Origin: Shigella phage Shfl1
Sequence record: HM035024
DNA: 50,661 nt
Strand: one strand, 5' to 3'
In this document: in pieces, positions 26,402 through 44,228 of the stretch
Layout: each line of letters begins with the position of its first letter
Numbering within the stretch: position 1 is the first letter of the stretch
Notes under the pieces: generated by a model
The model's input: the letters and a program-made list of their open reading frames with translations, nothing else
Databases searched by the model: none
What the model was told of the DNA's origin: nothing
Position numbers and translations under genes: made by a program

Positions 26402-29400
26402 ATGATTCAAAAAGTGATAAGCGGATCGAAAGGCGGTTCACCTAAGCCGCATAAGCCAGTTGAGATGGAAGATAATCTAATCTCAATCAACAAAATCAAG
26501 ATCCTGTTAGCTGTGTCTGATGGCGAGATTGACGAAACATTCAGCCTAAAGCAGTTGATGTTTAACTCAGTCCCGGTGCAAAACGAGGATGGCTCATTTA
26601 ACTTCGAGGGAGTAAAGGCAGAGTTTAGGCCGGGGACGCAGACTCAGGAATATATCAAGGGGATGGAAGATAGCTCTAGTGAGGTAACTGTAAACCGTGA
26701 GGTTACTACAGATAACCCATACACGATCTCAGTAACCAACAAAACACTTTCGGCAATCCGTATCAAAATGTTTATGCCTCGCGGCGTACGAATTGAAAGC
26801 AACGGTGATAAAAACGGCGTAAGAGTTGAGTATGAGGTGCAACAAGCTGTTGATGGCGGCTCGTTTGAGACGGTGCTCACCGATGTAATCGAAGGCAAAA
26901 CAATGTCAGGTTACGATCGAAGCAGACGTGTAAACCTACCTAACTTCAATAATCAGGTGATATTCAGAGTCGTTCGTAAAACTCCAGACTCTAAAGACTC
27001 GAACGTTGTTGACGCGATTCAAGTAAAGAGCTATGCCGAGGTGATTGATGCTAAATTCCGTTACCCTCTGACTGGTCTTCTTTTTGTCGAGTTCGATTCG
27101 AAGATGTTCCCAAACCAGTTGCCTACGATCTCAATTCGTAAGCGCTGGAAGATTGTAAACGTTCCGTCAAACTATGATCCAGAATCGCGAACTTATAACG
27201 GAAATTGGGATGGAACTTTTAAGAAGGCGTGGACGAATAATCCGGCTTGGGTGCTTTATGACCTGATGATTAATCAGCGTTATGGGCTGGATCAGAAAGA
27301 GCTTGGAATATCTGTCGATAAATGGGCGCTATATGAGGCGGCGCAATATTGCGATCAGATGGTTCCTGACGGTAAAGGCGGTACGGAGCCTCGCTACCTT
27401 TGTGACGTGATAATTCAGTCACAGACTGATGCGTACAAGGTGATTCGAGATATTTGCTCAATCTTCCGTGGCATGAGCTTTTGGAATGGTGAAAGCATTT
27501 CGGTAATCATCGACAGGCCGCGTGAACCTGCGTACATCTTCACTAACGACAACGTGGTTAATGGTGACTTCTCCTACACGTTCGCAAGCGAAAAGAGCAT
27601 GTACACGACGTGTAATGTGATGTTTGATGATGAACAAAACATGTATCAGCAGGACGTTGAGCCAGTATTCGATCGTGAGGCTACTCTACGTTTTGGGAAC
27701 AACGTAACGAGTATTACAGCGATCGGTTGCACACGTCGAAGCGAGGCCAACCGACGCGGGAGGTGGATTCTGAAAACTAACCTCCGCAGCACTACGGTAA
27801 ACTTCGCTACCGGACTTGAGGGCATGATCCCGACAATCGGAGATGTTGTAGCAATAGCTGATAACTTCTGGTCAAGTAACTTGACGATGAACCTGTCAGG
27901 GCGTTTGCTCGAAGTATCCGGTAGTCAGATTTTCCTGCCGTTCCGCGTTGATGCTCGCGCAGGTGACTTTATTATCGTAAATAAGCCCGATGGTAATCCC
28001 GTGAAGCGCACAATCTCAAGTGTTAGTGCGGATGGTAAGACTATAGAGGTTAACATCGGCTTTGGCTTTCCTGTGAAGCCTAACACGGTATTCGCAATCG
28101 ACCGTACCGACATTGCGTTGCAGCAGTACGTCGTGACCAAAATCGACAAGGGTGATGATGATGAAGAGTTTACCTACAAGATTACTGCGGTTGAGTACGA
28201 TCCTAACAAGTACGATGAGATTGATTACGGAGTTAACATCGACGACCGACCGACGAGCATCGTTGAGCCAGATCAGATCCCTAAACCGGAAAACGTGCAG
28301 GTGTCCTCAGAGTCGAGAATCGTCCAGGGTATGAGCGTAGAAACGATGATTGTTAGCTGGGATAAAGTGCCGTACGCAGTTTTCTATGACGTCCAGTGGC
28401 GAAAGGATAACGGCAACTGGCAGAACGTTCCGCAGACGGCAAACAAAGAGGTTTACGTTGAAGGGATTTACGCTGGAAACTATCAGGTTCGCGTTCGATC
28501 TGTAGCTGGCTCAGGTACGACTTCAGGATGGTCAAATATCGTAGCTGCGACGCTGACGGGTAAACAAGGTGAGCCGGGACGACCTATTAACCTTACAGCT
28601 ACGGATGATGTTGTTTTTGGTATCCGTACAAAATGGGGGTTCTCTGATGGTTCTGGAGATACGGCCTATACAGAGTTGCAACAGTCACCGGATGGAACAG
28701 TGGATAACGCAAGTTTGCTTTCTTTGATTCCGTACCCGCAGCATGAGTATTATCACTCACCGATGCCTGGAGGGAATATTGTGTGGTATAGGGTAAGGAC
28801 GGTTGACAGGATCGGTAACGTGTCTCAGTGGACTGATTTTGTCAGAGGTATGGCATCAACAAACGTTGACGATATCATCGGAGAGATTTCTGTCGATATC
28901 GAAAACTCGCCGGGTTACGAGTGGCTTGTTGATAACGCAACAGACAACGCGGCGCAGAACGCAGCTAACGCAGAGGCAGCAATAGAAAACGCGCTCGCCA
29001 ATGACAAAGACGCGATCTACATGAAGAAGGAGAACGGAAAACGAAAAGCTGAGTACACGAAATCACTTAAACTTATTGCTGATGAGACGCAGGCGCGAGT
29101 GACGTCGATCGAGCAGTTGAAGGCAAGTTTTGACGATCAGATTAGCGCAAGCAATAGCGAATTGCGTGAAGTTATAGCGACTGAGACTGGAGCGCTATCG
29201 CGTGAAATTGACCAACTCAAGGCAGAGATTGGTGATGATATCCAGGCAAGTTTGACTGATATCAGAGAGGCTATAGCAAACGAGACTGAGGCGAGAACGC
29301 AAGCTGACTTGTCGTTAAGCGCGAGGCTCGGGAATAATGAGGCGGCACTTTCTCAAAAACTTGATTCGTGGAGTAACGCGGATTCGACTGGTGCAATGTA

Positions 29401-29851
29401 CGGCGTCAAATTGGGTCTTAAATACAACGGGCAGGAATACAGCGCAGGCATGGCTATGTCTCTGATTGGTTCCGGCGCTGCGGTTAAGGCTCAGATTTTA
29501 TTTGAGGCATCACGATTTGCCATCATGACTGGAATGAATGGTCAGACGCAGTACCCATTCGTTGTTGAGAATGGCCAGGTTATTCTAAGTAGCGCGATCA
29601 TCAAGGATGGATTTATTACTAACGCCATGATTGGTAACGCGATTCAGTCTAACAATTGGGATGGAAATCAAGGGTGGCATATTAACAAGAATGGCGCAGC
29701 TTACTTCATGAACGCAACCGTAAGAGGTGCTTTGTATGCAAATAACGGAGCCTTTGCATTCAACGGGACAAACAATACGGTTCAGATAAACAATAACGGG
29801 ATCACGGTTAACCTACCTAACGGTGGACGAGTGGTTGTTGGTGTATGGTAA
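26402..29851 (+). CDS. central tail fibre / host specificity protein (lambda gpJ-like)
   Basis: 1149 aa; last large gene of tail cluster; fibronectin-III-like segments; Gly/Asn-rich C-terminal region. Confidence 0.8.
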   Translation: MIQKVISGSKGGSPKPHKPVEMEDNLISINKIKILLAVSDGEIDETFSLKQLMFNSVPVQNEDGSFNFEGVKAEFRPGTQTQEYIKGMEDSSSEVTVNREVTTDNPYTISVTNKTLSAIRIKMFMPRGVRIESNGDKNGVRVEYEVQQAVDGGSFETVLTDVIEGKTMSGYDRSRRVNLPNFNNQVIFRVVRKTPDSKDSNVVDAIQVKSYAEVIDAKFRYPLTGLLFVEFDSKMFPNQLPTISIRKRWKIVNVPSNYDPESRTYNGNWDGTFKKAWTNNPAWVLYDLMINQRYGLDQKELGISVDKWALYEAAQYCDQMVPDGKGGTEPRYLCDVIIQSQTDAYKVIRDICSIFRGMSFWNGESISVIIDRPREPAYIFTNDNVVNGDFSYTFASEKSMYTTCNVMFDDEQNMYQQDVEPVFDREATLRFGNNVTSITAIGCTRRSEANRRGRWILKTNLRSTTVNFATGLEGMIPTIGDVVAIADNFWSSNLTMNLSGRLLEVSGSQIFLPFRVDARAGDFIIVNKPDGNPVKRTISSVSADGKTIEVNIGFGFPVKPNTVFAIDRTDIALQQYVVTKIDKGDDDEEFTYKITAVEYDPNKYDEIDYGVNIDDRPTSIVEPDQIPKPENVQVSSESRIVQGMSVETMIVSWDKVPYAVFYDVQWRKDNGNWQNVPQTANKEVYVEGIYAGNYQVRVRSVAGSGTTSGWSNIVAATLTGKQGEPGRPINLTATDDVVFGIRTKWGFSDGSGDTAYTELQQSPDGTVDNASLLSLIPYPQHEYYHSPMPGGNIVWYRVRTVDRIGNVSQWTDFVRGMASTNVDDIIGEISVDIENSPGYEWLVDNATDNAAQNAANAEAAIENALANDKDAIYMKKENGKRKAEYTKSLKLIADETQARVTSIEQLKASFDDQISASNSELREVIATETGALSREIDQLKAEIGDDIQASLTDIREAIANETEARTQADLSLSARLGNNEAALSQKLDSWSNADSTGAMYGVKLGLKYNGQEYSAGMAMSLIGSGAAVKAQILFEASRFAIMTGMNGQTQYPFVVENGQVILSSAIIKDGFITNAMIGNAIQSNNWDGNQGWHINKNGAAYFMNATVRGALYANNGAFAFNGTNNTVQINNNGITVNLPNGGRVVVGVW

Positions 29852-29854
29852 CAG

Positions 29855-29880
29855 AAAGGGGCCGATTGGCCCCTTTTTTA
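29855..29880. terminator. bidirectional intrinsic terminator between convergent gpJ-like and receptor-binding-protein genes
   Basis: GGGGCC-GATT-GGCCCC flanked by A-run and T-run. Confidence 0.65.
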
Positions 29881-30843
29881 ATACATGTTTGGAGTGAAAG
29901 GAATTGGCATTGAAATGTTTATATTGAAGGGGAATCGCGCTCCGCTTTGGGTGGAATAGTTACCTACTCTTGTTCCGGGGGCGCTTCTCACGTTACCGCC
30001 ACTCATACACACGCCCTTGTATCGAATGTTATTATATCCACCTGTAACTCTGCATATTGTACCAGTTCTAAGTATTGGGAAAAATCCACCGCACCACTGC
30101 CACCCGTCATTTATCGCCATAGTCCCGCCGAGAACAAAAGGACGTCGAACGATTGAGAAAACAATCTGACCAGCAGGATTGCTCATAGTGATTCCAGGGC
30201 CGGGAGGTGGTGGGGTGTTATTAAATATTACGAGTTGAACGTATACGCTCGCGCCAACGTCATCAATACCGTTATAGTTTGCGTCTCTGCACCATATTGT
30301 ATTCCCGTCAGATTCAAGTGTTACATTTGGGTTATCCCACATACCGAAAGGAACACCCTGGACTGGCAACTGAGCCTGACCGTTAACCTGGATGCCTCCA
30401 ACAAATGCCGCACTCATCAACCTGGCGTTATTCGGTATCGCCGCGAAGTTCGTTGAATCGCTAACAAGCATCCCCTGATTTCCAGCCTGGGCGGGGAGAA
30501 TTTCGTAACAGTTGCCGTAAAACCTCATCCTTCTTCCACCATGACCGTTAAAATTACCTACCGTTATTCTCCCGGTTGAATCATTAACCTTCTGAAAGCT
30601 GGTTAAATAATACACCTCCGGGATATAATCCATGTCGTCTATGTAGATAGCCTGAGATGGAAGGCAAAAAGCGGTAGATCCTGGACTCATTTGCAGACCA
30701 AAATCAAAAACCGATCCAGATGAATCAACCCCGTCCGCTTGTATTGGTCCGCACCATGAAGGGGCGCGAAGTCCAGAGGTTATCTCCATTGCCGGACGAC
30801 CGTCATTTAGGTTTATGTATATTCCTTGTCCCATAATTACCAC
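29878..30843 (-). CDS. putative receptor-binding protein
   Basis: 321 aa Gly/Asn-rich protein convergent on gpJ-like gene and co-transcribed with a small lipoprotein, an arrangement like T5 pb5-llp; no catalytic motif. Confidence 0.35.
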   Translation of the reverse strand: MVIMGQGIYINLNDGRPAMEITSGLRAPSWCGPIQADGVDSSGSVFDFGLQMSPGSTAFCLPSQAIYIDDMDYIPEVYYLTSFQKVNDSTGRITVGNFNGHGGRRMRFYGNCYEILPAQAGNQGMLVSDSTNFAAIPNNARLMSAAFVGGIQVNGQAQLPVQGVPFGMWDNPNVTLESDGNTIWCRDANYNGIDDVGASVYVQLVIFNNTPPPPGPGITMSNPAGQIVFSIVRRPFVLGGTMAINDGWQWCGGFFPILRTGTICRVTGGYNNIRYKGVCMSGGNVRSAPGTRVGNYSTQSGARFPFNINISMPIPFTPNMY

Positions 30844-31067
30844 TCTTTGGTTTTGATTGATACCTTACCGCTGAAGTTACCCTGATCGTCGTCGGATGAC
30901 AGACCTTTGAATCGCATATCTATTTCTCCAGCCGGAACCTTCTTGCCGTCAACGAATCGCATCATGCAAGATCCGTAAGTGTAAGTAACGCAGTCTCCAT
31001 TTTTAAGATTCTGAGCGCAACCAGTCAGGATGAATGCAGCAGTAATAATGGCGATTAACTTTTTCAT
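30837..31067 (-). CDS. small lipoprotein, putative superinfection-exclusion factor (Cor/Llp-like)
   Basis: Signal peptide MKKLIAIITAAFILTGC with lipobox LTGC; start trimmed to internal ATG 31067 (GAGGA RBS); adjacent to putative receptor-binding protein. Confidence 0.45.
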   Translation of the reverse strand: MKKLIAIITAAFILTGCAQNLKNGDCVTYTYGSCMMRFVDGKKVPAGEIDMRFKGLSSDDDQGNFSGKVSIKTKEW

Positions 31068-31124
31068 TTGTATGTCCTCGTCTTTAGTGTGATTGCATTG
31101 TATGTCGCATTTACTTTTATTGCA

Positions 31125-31140
31125 ATAGCACGATTGCAAT
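31125..31140. promoter_or_regulatory. palindromic motif variant ATAGCACGATTGCAAT in divergent intergenic region
   Basis: Near-perfect palindrome TTGCAATAGCACGATTGCAA. Confidence 0.3.
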
Positions 31141-31146
31141 TTTTTA

Positions 31147-31320
31147 GTGTAACAGGTGTCTATTTTTGTAACCGTAACGGGTGTTACAAAATACACCACA
31201 TCCGATCGCAGAGGGATATGATAAAAACTCTATATAATATATATAGATAGATAATATTTAATTTTAGCTTTATATATATAATTATTGCTGTGTAACAGTT
31301 GTCTATCGTGTAACAGGTGA
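31147..31320. repeat. iteron-like repeats GTGTAACAG(G/T)TGTCTAT
   Basis: Copies at 31147-31163, 31290-31306, partial 31308-31320; inverted half-sites TGTTACA (31414) and ATAGACACC (31432); palindrome TGTAAC-N10-GTTACA at 31167-31188. Confidence 0.7.
31230..31246. repeat. 17-bp AT-rich palindromic element CTATATAATATATATAG (copy 2)
   Basis: Identical to 171-187. Confidence 0.85.
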
Positions 31321-41033: not shown

Positions 41034-41283
41034 ACGAGAGGTTTGGGAGCACGCGAAGGAATGCGGAATCTCAGAAGATATAGCACTAATAGCAAAATAT
41101 TTCGATATAAAGGATGTTAGCATTATCTCAAACGGAAAGATTTCATTTATGGAAGATATGCCGAGAAAAATGCATAGAGTGCCAGCCACCCCATCACTTG
41201 AGTTTTATCGTGAAGAAGGAAAGAGAATTGAGCGAGAACGAAAGAACGCAAAGAACAACAAGCCTTCCAGGCTTAAATATTAA
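41011..41283 (+). CDS. hypothetical protein (90 aa), uncertain frame
   Basis: ORF overlapping 41114..41515 in another frame; weak RBS; A7 run at 41016-41022. Confidence 0.3.
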   Translation: MLIKKQGKREVWEHAKECGISEDIALIAKYFDIKDVSIISNGKISFMEDMPRKMHRVPATPSLEFYREEGKRIERERKNAKNNKPSRLKY

Positions 41284-41515
41284 CTCAGATGACTACCAGA
41301 CAATATGGATTGGGAAAAAGCAGGTTAAGCAAATCCCTTTCTCTGACTGGTTGCCACCTGACTTTGTTAACGTGCTTTGCACTATCGGTATTGAGCAGGA
41401 GTTGCATATAGGTTACTACTCACCAGGCAGAAACAGTATGATGCTTGAGGTTGACGGAAAACTTGTTGAGTTTAAATCTTCGGATCTAGGATTCTGGTTA
41501 AAGGCTGTGGCATGA
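41114..41515 (+). CDS. hypothetical protein (133 aa), uncertain start
   Basis: ORF overlapping 41011..41283; no convincing RBS at 41114. Confidence 0.3.
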   Translation: MLALSQTERFHLWKICREKCIECQPPHHLSFIVKKERELSENERTQRTTSLPGLNINSDDYQTIWIGKKQVKQIPFSDWLPPDFVNVLCTIGIEQELHIGYYSPGRNSMMLEVDGKLVEFKSSDLGFWLKAVA

Positions 41516-41593: not shown

Positions 41594-42745
41594 ATGTCAC
41601 AAGCTAAAATCACCACCGAGCAACTTATTGAAGAGCGCATGAGCGGCCTAACACTTCGCGAAATCGCGGAAAAATACGGTATGCACATTCGCACTGTTGA
41701 AGCGCGCCATGCCAAGCTGGCAAAAGAAGGTCATTTTCACGGTAACGAGCATGTTGCTAAAAACGTGCCCGAGGGATTCATGGTAAAAGGCACGTCGACG
41801 ATGATTCGCGGCGATGGGACCGAGGTAGTGCGCTGGGTAAAAACCGATCAGGACCGTGAGAAGATTGCGGCAATGATGGAGGCGGCGCGCATTGCATTCT
41901 GTGAAGACCTGCCGCGAGCAAAGCCAACCGAGCTACTAACCTCGCAAGGGATTACGACAGCGATGGGTAAGCTGGCACTCTATCCGGTATTCGACCTGCA
42001 CATTGGTGCGCTTGCTCACAAGCATGAATGCGGAGAGAACTACTCTACCGACGTAGCCGAAAAAGTGCTTGTCGACTTCTTCAATTACGCGATCGATATT
42101 GCCCCGAACGCAGAGAAAGCTGTTCTGTTAATCGGCGGTGACTTCCTTCACTCGGACGGCCTTGATGCTGTTACCCCGGCAAGCGGTCACGTTCTGGATC
42201 AGGATTCACGATACGCAAAATTGGTGCATGTTGCGATCCGTTCGGTGCGTCGCGCTATCGACAAAATGCTTATGAAACACAAAGAAGTCGAGGTTCAGAT
42301 TATTGAAGGGAACCACGACCAGGCCGGGATGATTTGGCTACGTGCTGCAATGTCGGCATATTATGAAGACGAGCCGCGAGTATTCGTTGACGTTAGCCCT
42401 ATGATTCTGCATAAGACTCGATGGGGAAACACCTTATTGGGATACACTCACGGGCACACTATGAAAAAGGCAGACACGCGACTTGCAGCGATGGCGGCAG
42501 ACTTCCGTGCAGACTTCGGAGAGAGCAAGTATGTGTATACTCATAGCGGTCACTGGCATCATCAGACAATCACTGAACACTCGTTAGGTATCGATGAGGT
42601 TCACGGTCAGTTAGGAGCGAAGGATGCATACGCCGCGCGCGGCGGGTGGCGCTCATATCGTCAGGCGGCGGTAATCGTTTACGATAAACAGTTTGGGGAA
42701 ATCGGTCGGTTCATCTATCGTCCAGAAATGACAGGATCGCACTAA
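41594..42745 (+). CDS. calcineurin-like metallophosphoesterase with N-terminal HTH-like segment
   Basis: Metallophosphatase motifs FDLHIG (DxH), GGDFLHSDG (GD...), EGNHDQ (GNHD/E), HSGHWHH; N-terminal LTLREIAEKYGMHIRTVEARHAKL. Confidence 0.55.
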   Translation: MSQAKITTEQLIEERMSGLTLREIAEKYGMHIRTVEARHAKLAKEGHFHGNEHVAKNVPEGFMVKGTSTMIRGDGTEVVRWVKTDQDREKIAAMMEAARIAFCEDLPRAKPTELLTSQGITTAMGKLALYPVFDLHIGALAHKHECGENYSTDVAEKVLVDFFNYAIDIAPNAEKAVLLIGGDFLHSDGLDAVTPASGHVLDQDSRYAKLVHVAIRSVRRAIDKMLMKHKEVEVQIIEGNHDQAGMIWLRAAMSAYYEDEPRVFVDVSPMILHKTRWGNTLLGYTHGHTMKKADTRLAAMAADFRADFGESKYVYTHSGHWHHQTITEHSLGIDEVHGQLGAKDAYAARGGWRSYRQAAVIVYDKQFGEIGRFIYRPEMTGSH

Positions 42746-42756
42746 TTGATAAAAAC
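42737..42756 (+). promoter_or_regulatory. conserved motif variant TCGCACTAATTGATAAAAAC with TATAGT 17 nt downstream
   Basis: TATAGT 42774-42779 after inverted repeat CCCGAAGGGATTCGGG. Confidence 0.4.
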
Positions 42757-42810
42757 GCCCGAAGGGATTCGGGTATAGTAACCACATCAAAAACAAAGAG
42801 GCTACATATC

Positions 42811-42987
42811 ATGAAACGAGTTAAGTGCATCAGAAATGACTCCAAAACACTTCCATTCCGCGTAAATCAGATCTATAGTGTTGGTTATGATTTCGTTGGG
42901 GGATTGTTTGAGATTTACGACGGTCGAGGCTCAGTAATCCAGGCGCCTCTGAATGGTTACTACCTGGAATTTATTGAGATAAATTAA
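42811..42987 (+). CDS. small hypothetical protein (58 aa)
   Basis: Hand translated; AAAGAGG RBS; preceded by motif and TATAGT; followed by intrinsic terminator. Confidence 0.4.
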   Translation: MKRVKCIRNDSKTLPFRVNQIYSVGYDFVGGLFEIYDGRGSVIQAPLNGYYLEFIEIN

Positions 42988-43010
42988 CAATATCATTCAT
43001 CACCTTACAG

Positions 43011-43041
43011 GCTGGCATGATTTACATGCTGGCCTTTTTGC
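43011..43041 (+). terminator. intrinsic terminator upstream of lysis cassette
   Basis: GGCTGGCATG...CATGCTGGCC (with G-U pairs) followed by T5. Confidence 0.5.
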
Positions 43042-43106
43042 GTTGTATCAAGTAAATTTGAAGGTTAAAATCGACTCACTTGTTCAAAAAAATATATGGT
43101 GAGATT

Positions 43107-43322
43107 ATGAAAGAATTTTTAACAGCAGCCACGTCAAGCACGGGCGGTGCTTCGTTGGTAGGGGCGGCGACAGGTCAACTTTATATTGCTGGCGCTACAT
43201 TCATTTGCTTTCTGCTTTTTGGCGCTTGGGGAGCGTACTGGAAGTATCGCGATAGCAAGGCAATTCAGGAAGCGTTAAACGATGGCGATCTAAATAAGGC
43301 GCTTAAGATCAGGGGGAGATAA
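43107..43322 (+). CDS. putative holin (pinholin-like, two transmembrane segments)
   Basis: 71 aa; weakly hydrophobic Gly/Ala-rich first segment and second [19 protein letters not shown]; charged C-terminus; directly upstream of lysozyme. Confidence 0.5.
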
Positions 43323-43810
43323 TGAGTTTAAAAAATAACGTTATAGGCGCATCGATCGGGGCAGCTTTGACGTTGACACCTACCCTACTGGAACGAATCG
43401 AAGGTATAGAATACGAGGTTTATTACGATATCGCCGGAGTCCCTACCGTATGCAGCGGAATAACCGGGCCGGACGTCATACCTGGTAAGAAATACACTAA
43501 GCGAGAATGCGATGCTTTGTTGATAAAACACATCGGCGTCGCTCAGCGATACGTTGACAAAAAGGTAAAGGTTGATATTCCGGTAACGATGCGAGCGTCA
43601 TTGTATAGCTTTACTTTCAACGTTGGTACTGGCGCGTTCGGATCTTCTACAATGCTTAAGCTAATAAATCAGGGTAAGCACAGGGAAGCGTGCAATCAGT
43701 TATGGCGATGGGTATACTACTACAACCCAAAAACCAAAAAGCGCGAAGTGTCTAGAGGACTCAAGAACAGACGCGCTGAAGAATACGCGTATTGCGTTAA
43801 GGAATTATGA
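43322..43810 (+). CDS. endolysin (T4-type lysozyme, probable SAR endolysin)
   Basis: Catalytic triad spacing E-x8-D-x5-T in [19 protein letters not shown]; N-terminal Gly/Ala-rich weakly hydrophobic stretch [17 protein letters not shown]. Confidence 0.7.
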
Positions 43811-44211
43811 TGAAACTGAAGAAAACATGCATTGCGATTGTAGTGGCTGTTGGTGTTATTTCTCTATCCGGTTGCTCGATGCCATCTGCCCTGAGCGGTT
43901 TAATCGGATCTAAACCTGAAGTTACAGCACAGATTGGAGAGGAGAACACAAAGCAATTAGCAGGAGTAACCGCAAAATCCGAAGATAAGCGAGATGTTAA
44001 AGTTGAAAAGTCCAATGTAGGAAAGGTTGACTCTTCCGTGAAGAAGTCAATTGAAGTGTCAACCATTCAGGCCAACACGGTTAACGCTGAAAGCATCACT
44101 GTGACTAAGCCTGGAAACTGGTATGATCCTATAGTTGGTTGGACACTCGTTCTCATTGGTCTGTTGCTGGTTTATTTTTCAATTCGTAAGGGCGAAAAAA
44201 AGGAGGCTTAG
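43807..44211 (+). CDS. unimolecular spanin (lipoprotein with C-terminal transmembrane anchor)
   Basis: Lipobox LSGC after signal peptide; C-terminal [18 protein letters not shown]; last gene of lysis cassette. Confidence 0.55.
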
Positions 44212-44228
44212 CCTCCTTTCTTATTTGT
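44195..44228. terminator. bidirectional intrinsic terminator after spanin
   Basis: AGGAGGC-TTA-GCCTCCT flanked by A7 and T-rich run. Confidence 0.6.

Follow-up and report, generated by a model that had tools for sequence, protein, structure and literature searches.

The T1-type lysis cassette of Shigella phage Shfl1 and its predicted pinholin, SAR endolysin and unimolecular spanin

The lysis module of phage T1 (Tunavirus, Drexlerviridae), which comprises the genes for gp13, gp12 and gp11, is a textbook case and the source of the unimolecular spanin (u-spanin) that serves as the prototype. In annotations published since 2015 the T1 module appears as "pinholin (class II), SAR endolysin, unimolecular spanin", and many Drexlerviridae genomes already carry this three-part annotation. 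Of the members of the T1 gp11 family, all but two belong to cassettes with genes for a pinholin and a SAR endolysin (PMC6139136, 2018). T1 Gp12 has been described as 'also a predicted SAR endolysin' and the holins of TLS and T1 as 'proposed to be class II pinholins' (PMC11447400, 2024), and an account from 2026 gives the same description with the addition of a DUF7244/SH3 protein, which is proposed to have an accessory role, as a 'shell' component, in the lysis module of Drexlerviridae (PMC13164509). The three-gene lysis cassette of a T1-like phage is hence already known, and the three-part reading of it that is considered below is in print. On close relatives of the Shfl1 proteins, experiments have shown the topology requirements of the spanin and its complementation of lambda Rz/Rz1, both with T1 gp11 (PMC6139136), as well as the structure and regulation of the endolysins R21 and RrrD. 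The pinholin and SAR labels rest on prediction across the whole T1 family.

The window analyzed here is a stretch of 50,661 nt from Shigella phage Shfl1 (sequence record HM035024). Positions 43107 to 44211 of the window hold three open reading frames (ORFs) on the plus strand in the order holin, lysozyme and spanin. An earlier note, made from the letters of the window, had proposed three overlap-coupled genes at this place, and re-derivation of the ORFs returned the same coordinates and both junctions: the holin and lysozyme ORFs meet at TAATG, with an overlap of 1 nt, and the lysozyme and spanin ORFs meet at ATGA, with an overlap of 4 nt, or of 1 nt if the second ATG of the spanin is used. 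The cassette matches T1 gp13-gp12-gp11 in gene order, product sizes (71, 162, and 133 aa), coupling by overlap and flanking genes, and direct alignment with T1 gave identities of 100% for the holin (gp13), 98% for the endolysin (gp12) and, over its full length, 79% for the spanin (gp11). The two genomes are colinear from the exonuclease (gp16) through the DUF7244 protein (gp14), holin (gp13), endolysin (gp12) and gp11 to the convergent terminator; the T1 HNH gene for gp15, which lies 5′ of the module, is absent in Shfl1. By megablast the region is 92-98% identical to Tunavirus genomes, including those of phiL, SA32RD, pSf-2, SH6 and ADB-2, and the rightmost 20 kb of the Shfl1 sequence shares 95.6% identity with Shigella phage phiL. 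The features of the cassette are kept in hundreds of Drexlerviridae genomes and so are not due to chance, and the Shfl1 region is almost certainly a T1-type lysis cassette with a gp11-type u-spanin.

Hairpins delimit the cassette on both sides. A terminator scan detected a hairpin with a U-run, resembling an intrinsic terminator, at positions 43009..43035 of the plus strand (-16.9 kcal/mol, z = -3.3, with none of 200 shuffles as stable). It is located between the DUF7244 gene and the holin gene, forms the 5′ boundary of the cassette and is identical in T1 and pSf-2. The DUF7244 gene itself (42811..42987, plus strand), which lies outside the region considered in the earlier note, encodes a 58-aa SH3-clan protein that is the orthologue of T1 gp14 (Pfam PF23896 at 3.8e-27). 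At the other end the same scan detected a bidirectional hairpin terminator (44199..44219), which overlaps the spanin stop codon (TAG, 44209-44211), has an A-run on its 5′ side and a T-run on its 3′ side, and separates the cassette from convergent minus-strand genes. Its predicted folding energies are -16.7 kcal/mol (z = -2.8) for the plus strand and -17.1 kcal/mol (z = -3.9) for the minus strand. T1 likewise has a 5′ hairpin and a 3′ bidirectional terminator, the latter annotated as a terminator at the equivalent place. A consensus scan of the plus strand between the 5′ hairpin and the holin gene revealed no sigma-70 promoter. Two further candidate elements near the start of the holin gene were rejected, namely an RNA structure sequestering the Shine-Dalgarno sequence in the manner of lambda sdi, since positions 43050-43130 fold no better than shuffles (z = +0.28), and an antiholin start at the in-frame TTG at 43080, which has no Shine-Dalgarno sequence and just 5′ of which there is a 1-nt deletion in T1.

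The spanin gene (43807..44211, plus strand) is the last of the cassette and is closed by the terminator. Its product, the orthologue of T1 gp11, is 96% identical to the 'Rz-like spanin' of pSf-2 and 100% identical to the 'hypothetical protein' Shfl1p71, and its match in PHROGs is 1804 ('Rz-like spanin', 2e-45). Neither this protein nor the holin gave anything above threshold when scanned against Pfam and NCBIfam, such that only PHROGs names both, and a sequence search of the spanin against solved structures gave no match even at E <= 10. The earlier note had pointed to a lipobox and a C-terminal TMD as the marks of a u-spanin like T1 gp11, and both are present. The N-terminus has the sequence pattern of a lipoprotein signal, with MMKLKK followed by a hydrophobic core and then the lipobox L20-S21-G22-C23 (nt 43864-43875), with Ser24 at position +2. 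The TMD extends from I109 to I126 (nt 44131-44184; Kyte-Doolittle hydropathy (KD) 2.2-2.3, Hessa sum 0.25) and is followed by the basic tail RKGEKKEA. Between these two elements is a beta-rich periplasmic region. Cysteine occurs at two positions only, C8 of the signal peptide and C23 of the lipobox; neither is periplasmic, and periplasmic cysteines are also absent from u-spanins, of which the gp11 family is the largest (PMC6139136).

Lipobox and C-terminal TMD occur together in 117 of the 120 homologues compared, the other three being fragments or frameshifted calls; the lipobox is LSGC in 112 of the 120 and the +2 residue is Ser in 114. The same architecture is found in cassettes of Rogunavirinae, Nouzillyvirus, Tlsvirus, Hanrivervirus and Klebsiella phage Sparks. 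In T1 gp11, the prototype u-spanin, which complements the lambda RzRz1 lysis defect, the wild-type lipobox is LSGC as well, and complementation of lambda RzRz1 persisted in a mutant with AWAC in place of LSGC (PMC6139136). Relative to gp11, the Shfl1 protein carries ∼20% substitutions in its periplasmic domain and TMD, and the T1 TMD cysteine C111 is absent. Judged by sequence, every feature that marks a u-spanin of the T1 gp11 type can be detected in the Shfl1 protein.

The lysozyme gene ends in TGA in Shfl1 and in TAA in T1, and this exchange provides the Shfl1 spanin with a second, upstream ATG, so that the gene has tandem ATG codons at 43807 (134 aa) and 43810 (133 aa), of which T1 has the equivalent of 43810 only. 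The codon at 43810 is the likelier start, because it is the codon from which the 133-aa protein is called in the records of Shfl1, pSf-2 and T1 alike. The study of gp11 by Kongari et al. in J Virol in 2018 is said to have reported internal-start products.

The endolysin gene (43322..43810, plus strand; ATG 43322, TGA 43808-43810) encodes a 162-aa lysozyme of the GH24/T4 type (Pfam Phage_lysozyme PF00959 at 6e-34), which is the orthologue of T1 gp12 and a predicted R21-type SAR endolysin. Its catalytic residues, E27 (43400-43402), D36 (43427-43429) and T42 (43445-43447), have exactly the E-x8-D-x5-T spacing that had been read from the sequence before, and they are invariant among 65 homologues. 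The nearest solved structures by sequence are those of R21 of phage 21 (3HDE (3HDF), at 4.5e-35) and of RrrD of DLP12 (4ZPU), the paradigms of the SAR endolysins of the non-cysteine type. An AlphaFold2 (AF2) model built on 65 sequences (pLDDT 90) has 4ZPU and 3HDE as its best Foldseek matches, with a TM of 0.83 over the full length, N-terminal helix included. The GH24 fold and the catalytic triad are common to gp12, R21 and RrrD, and identity to RrrD is 45% over the catalytic domain; the C-terminal region of gp12 is unlike that of R21/RrrD and contains a 15-residue insertion-like segment.

The Gly/Ala-rich, weakly hydrophobic N-terminus ascribed to the lysozyme by the earlier note corresponds to V7-L23 (nt 43340-43390), an uncharged stretch of 17 residues, or 19 counting N5-N6, which is preceded by K4, consists to 53% of G/A/S/T and has a KD of 1.68. 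Cys is absent from it, as would be expected for the R21 type and not for the P1 type, and in the AF2 model it is part of one continuous helix spanning residues 2-27. Across ∼115 homologues (34-99% identity), one or two basic residues are followed by an uncharged stretch of 14-20 residues (usually 17-19) rich in Ala, Gly, Val, Leu and Thr, and then by a conserved P-L-L/I-E-x-I/V motif that holds the catalytic Glu. The sequence of the stretch drifts among these homologues while its character is kept, a pattern such as selection for a membrane tether would be expected to leave. The N-terminal helix of R21 and RrrD is likewise Gly/Ala-rich, uncharged and devoid of Cys. However, the N-terminus of gp12 is eight residues shorter than that of R21, and its uncharged stretch of 17-19 residues compares with 24 in R21/RrrD. 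The stretch holds Pro20 and four Thr and is at the short, weak end of the SAR range, with a KD of 1.68 over 17 aa compared to 1.99 over 20 aa for the RrrD core (fetched sequences) and a simple Hessa sum over 19 residues of +6.8 kcal/mol compared to +0.8 kcal/mol for R21, the latter value being computed on a sequence that did not come from a database.

Functional information is available for a distant homologue, the Drexlerviridae endolysin 57_3Lys (roughly 50% identity), induction of which leads to lysis of E. coli that is inhibited by sodium azide in a dose-dependent manner (bioRxiv 10.64898/2026.09.09.750462). The N-terminus of 57_3Lys is MKQKLLISAATAAAIYIAAP, with E26, D35 and T41 (bioRxiv 10.64898/2026.09.09.750462), and is nearly the same as the P0111 N-terminus; P0111 in turn has 51% identity to the Shfl1 endolysin. 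Taken with the conservation of the N-terminal stretch, it is probable that the Shfl1 endolysin is a genuine SAR enzyme; its export by the Sec system and its release from the membrane are presumed by analogy.

The holin gene (43107..43322, plus strand; ATG 43107, TAA 43320-43322) is preceded by a Shine-Dalgarno sequence, GGTGAG, 4 nt 5′ of the start, and encodes a 71-aa orthologue of T1 gp13, a predicted class II pinholin. The protein matches PHROG 2877 ('holin') at 1.9e-38. Its family was found by tblastn in 825 phage records, nearly all of them Drexlerviridae-like and some labeled 'pinholin' or 'class 2 pinholin', and constitutes a separate Pfam entry, PF27028, in the source databases. Residues 4-45 form an uncharged run of 42 residues, in which the weak first and strong second segments described in the earlier note were both recovered: segment 1, aa 4-21 (nt 43116-43169), is 78% Gly/Ala/Ser/Thr and marginal, with a KD of 0.99, whereas TMD2, aa 25-45 (nt 43179-43241), is strong, with a KD of 1.5-1.9. 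Between the two is a polar turn, T22-G23-Q24, which is TGQ, TGE or SDN in relatives and is always polar. When relatives are aligned, A28, T31/F32, F35, F38/G39 and G42 are invariant and make up a conserved helical face within aa 25-45; a basic cytoplasmic tail is predicted to follow the TMD. An AF2 model, which could draw on only nine sequences, has a pLDDT of 66, with a confident helix at residues 22-58, values below 50 at residues 11-20 and no hairpin.

The S21 68/EssD protein (PF04971, Phage_holin_2_1) is also 71 aa long and adjoins an R21-type endolysin on the 5′ side, and it likewise combines a weak, Gly/Ala/Ser/Thr-rich first segment with a strong second TMD and a C-terminal tail that is basic. 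In hydrophobicity, segment 1 of gp13 equals or exceeds the TMD1 region of EssD, an experimentally established SAR (KD 0.99 compared to 0.38, on fetched sequences), which makes a SAR-like first TMD plausible in the Shfl1 holin. The holin gene is located directly 5′ of the gene for an R21-type endolysin, to which it is translationally coupled, and each of the seven Drexlerviridae cassettes that were compared has this pairing. The S21 pinholin was rejected as a homologue, since BLASTP of the holin against EssD (E. coli K-12 DLP12 prophage) gave no alignment at E <= 100; nor does the holin match PF04971, which EssD itself matches at 2e-35. The designation pinholin is accordingly a functional and topological analogy, drawn from the pairing with an R21-type endolysin, and not a family membership. 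On these features it appears somewhat more probable that the holin is a two-TMD pinholin than that it is not.

Different constructions can be put on the same two proteins. It could be argued that gp13 is a holin with a single TMD (N-out, C-in) that forms large holes and that gp12 is a cytoplasmic lysozyme with an extended first helix, the role of the spanin being the same. This would agree with the T1 GenBank record, which annotates gp13 as a holin and states that it 'contains single transmembrane domain', with the AF2 model, where nine sequences yielded no confident helix for segment 1, and with the uncharged stretch of gp12, which at just 17 residues is weaker than the SAR domain of R21/RrrD; the literature searched, moreover, yielded no direct experiment on T1 gp12 or gp13. 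To our knowledge, however, the soluble GH24 endolysins P22 gp19 and T4 E carry no such uncharged N-terminal extension, and a cytoplasmic enzyme is at odds with a stretch that stays uncharged and hydrophobic throughout the homologues despite drift. The nearest characterized relatives of gp12 are, furthermore, SAR endolysins, the Drexlerviridae homologue 57_3Lys by itself brings about lysis that is sensitive to azide, and surveys from the Young laboratory class T1-family cassettes as pinholin plus SAR (PMC6139136). A single-TMD holin working with a cytoplasmic lysozyme is thus improbable. For gp13 itself, the one-TMD and the pinholin models lead to the same final active topology, with a single TMD, the N-terminus outside and the C-terminus inside.

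Export with cleavage is a further way to account for the N-terminus of gp12, which would then be a Sec signal peptide, with the mature enzyme free in the periplasm and regulated otherwise. An n-region with Lys4 and a subsequent hydrophobic stretch with small residues (GAS, GAA) are what such a peptide might look like, but the Ala-X-Ala-like sites (after S11, G13 and A15) would leave an h-region of just 5-9 residues. The stretch is also continuous with the helix that carries Glu27, and since residues 2-27 are one helix in the AF2 model, cleavage would take away a portion of the fold on which R21 depends once it is released. R21 and RrrD are themselves uncleaved and were crystallized as full-length forms (3HDE, 4ZPU), and a cleaved gp12 is considered very unlikely indeed. 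The membrane-tethered SAR endolysin paired with a pinholin is the preferred reading of the two genes.

The Shfl1 cassette is the late lysis cassette of a Tunavirus, a T1-like siphophage, and probably follows the pinholin/SAR endolysin/u-spanin route. The support is uneven by component, consisting of experiments on a 79%-identical protein for the spanin, of homology to R21/RrrD, N-terminal conservation and one azide test of a distant homologue for the SAR assignment, and of hydropathy and pairing for the pinholin. The three-part interpretation given in the earlier note, pinholin, SAR endolysin and unimolecular spanin, is supported in that it matches the published descriptions of T1, whose cassette this is; a reading of the sequence by itself had sufficed to recover the topology logic of the cassette.

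By analogy with these systems, the following sequence of events can be proposed. Before lysis, the 162-aa lysozyme would be exported by the host Sec system and held inactive at the periplasmic face of the inner membrane, tethered by the helix V7-L23, which ends four residues before Glu27, while the 71-aa holin would build up in the inner membrane. The spanin would be lipoylated at Cys23 (Cys22 if counted from the T1-equivalent start) and, because its +2 residue is Ser, would be sorted to the outer membrane. Its C-terminal helix would remain in the inner membrane, such that a single chain would cross the periplasm through the murein mesh. At triggering, the strong second helix of the holin is predicted to oligomerize and to form small holes that depolarize the membrane, whereupon the N-terminal helix of the lysozyme may exit the bilayer and, like that of R21, refold onto the catalytic domain, and murein would be degraded. 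Once the murein mesh is gone, the spanins could gather in clusters and bring about fusion or disruption of the outer membrane, and the phage would be released. The two-TMD topology of gp13, the size of its pinholes and the fusion mechanism of the u-spanin are inferred.

In gp13 the hydrophobic segments are contiguous, with a polar turn of three residues, whereas in S21/EssD a charged loop lies between them, and the dual-start Met-Lys-x-Met motif of the S21 type is absent. In gp12, the distance from the uncharged stretch to the catalytic Glu is four residues, compared to eight in R21/RrrD. It is conceivable, though rather doubtful, that the gp13 family represents an independent, sequence-unrelated invention of a pinholin, or else a single-TMD holin with a Gly/Ser/Thr-rich N-terminal tail that is periplasmic from the start, and that gp12 could be inactivated sterically by its short tether, which ends four residues from the catalytic Glu, unlike R21 with its refolding switch. 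The Shfl1 spanin would do the same job as lambda Rz/Rz1, that of disrupting the outer membrane as the final step of lysis, and both systems have one outer membrane lipoprotein anchor and one inner membrane TMD anchor. The two share no sequence similarity, and Shfl1 has no embedded gene. The periplasmic domain is beta-rich and without cysteines in the Shfl1 spanin but a coiled-coil in lambda, and the two anchors, which lambda divides between two components, are carried in Shfl1 on one polypeptide.

The spanin gene of the window opens with tandem ATG codons (43807-43812), of which the second, 43810, is the conserved start. A single ATG is found at this position in T1, within the sequence TAATG, whereas the window and its Tunavirus relative pSf-2 have TGATG with an additional ATG before it, which arises because the lysozyme stop codon has changed from TAA to TGA. 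Across the family, overlap coupling of the endolysin and spanin genes is frequent yet not uniform, since the overlap is 19 nt in Rogunavirinae and Nouzillyvirus cassettes (the Opt-719 and TH27 loci, L003 and L004, at locus positions ∼2280-2300) and 1-4 nt in Tunavirus, and the two genes are separated by a 2-nt gap in the Hanrivervirus "grams".

Several database entries of relatives, all outside the window (P0104, P0002, and P0186), appear to reflect errors of annotation or sequencing. In vB_SsoS_008, the "endolysin" opens with holin sequence and is therefore a fused call, and the spanin of the same phage is without a TMD, which suggests a frameshift. In the ISF001 endolysin, an I8K substitution within the tether, the uncharged N-terminal stretch, reduces the uncharged run to 15 residues.

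Upstream of the holin gene, on the plus strand, lies the T1 gp14 orthologue (42811-42987), a 58-aa DUF7244/SH3-clan protein (Pfam, 3.8e-27) that has been put forward as an accessory component of the lysis module (2026; PMC13164509). A stable terminator-like hairpin (43009-43035), identical in sequence in T1 and pSf-2, separates the two genes. Because this conserved element intervenes, the DUF7244 gene and the cassette may have separate transcripts, or may share one only through read-through. On its other side, the gene is bordered by the exonuclease gene (41594-42745; T1 gp16 orthologue), and the intervening interval (42745-42811, compared with T1 41955-42583) lacks the HNH homing-endonuclease gene gp15 present in T1. 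SH6, ADB-2, ISF002, and other relatives appear to carry an extra segment here, as their two-piece matches to the queried 1.7-kb region exceed the span in the window by ∼290 bp. A plus-strand ORF of 133 aa (41114-41515), which precedes the exonuclease gene, had no match in Pfam; it has a Cys/His-rich N-terminal stretch, CREKCIECQPPHH, and its positional counterpart in T1 is the shorter gp17.

Directly past a long plus-strand ORF (26402-29851) are two overlapping minus-strand genes, of which one (29878-30843) encodes a DUF6453 protein (4.8e-126) and the other (30837-31199) a "phage lipoprotein" of family PF24052 that carries a lipid-attachment motif. The pair, which may represent an alternative exclusion module, occupies the approximate position of the Cor superinfection-exclusion gene in T1.
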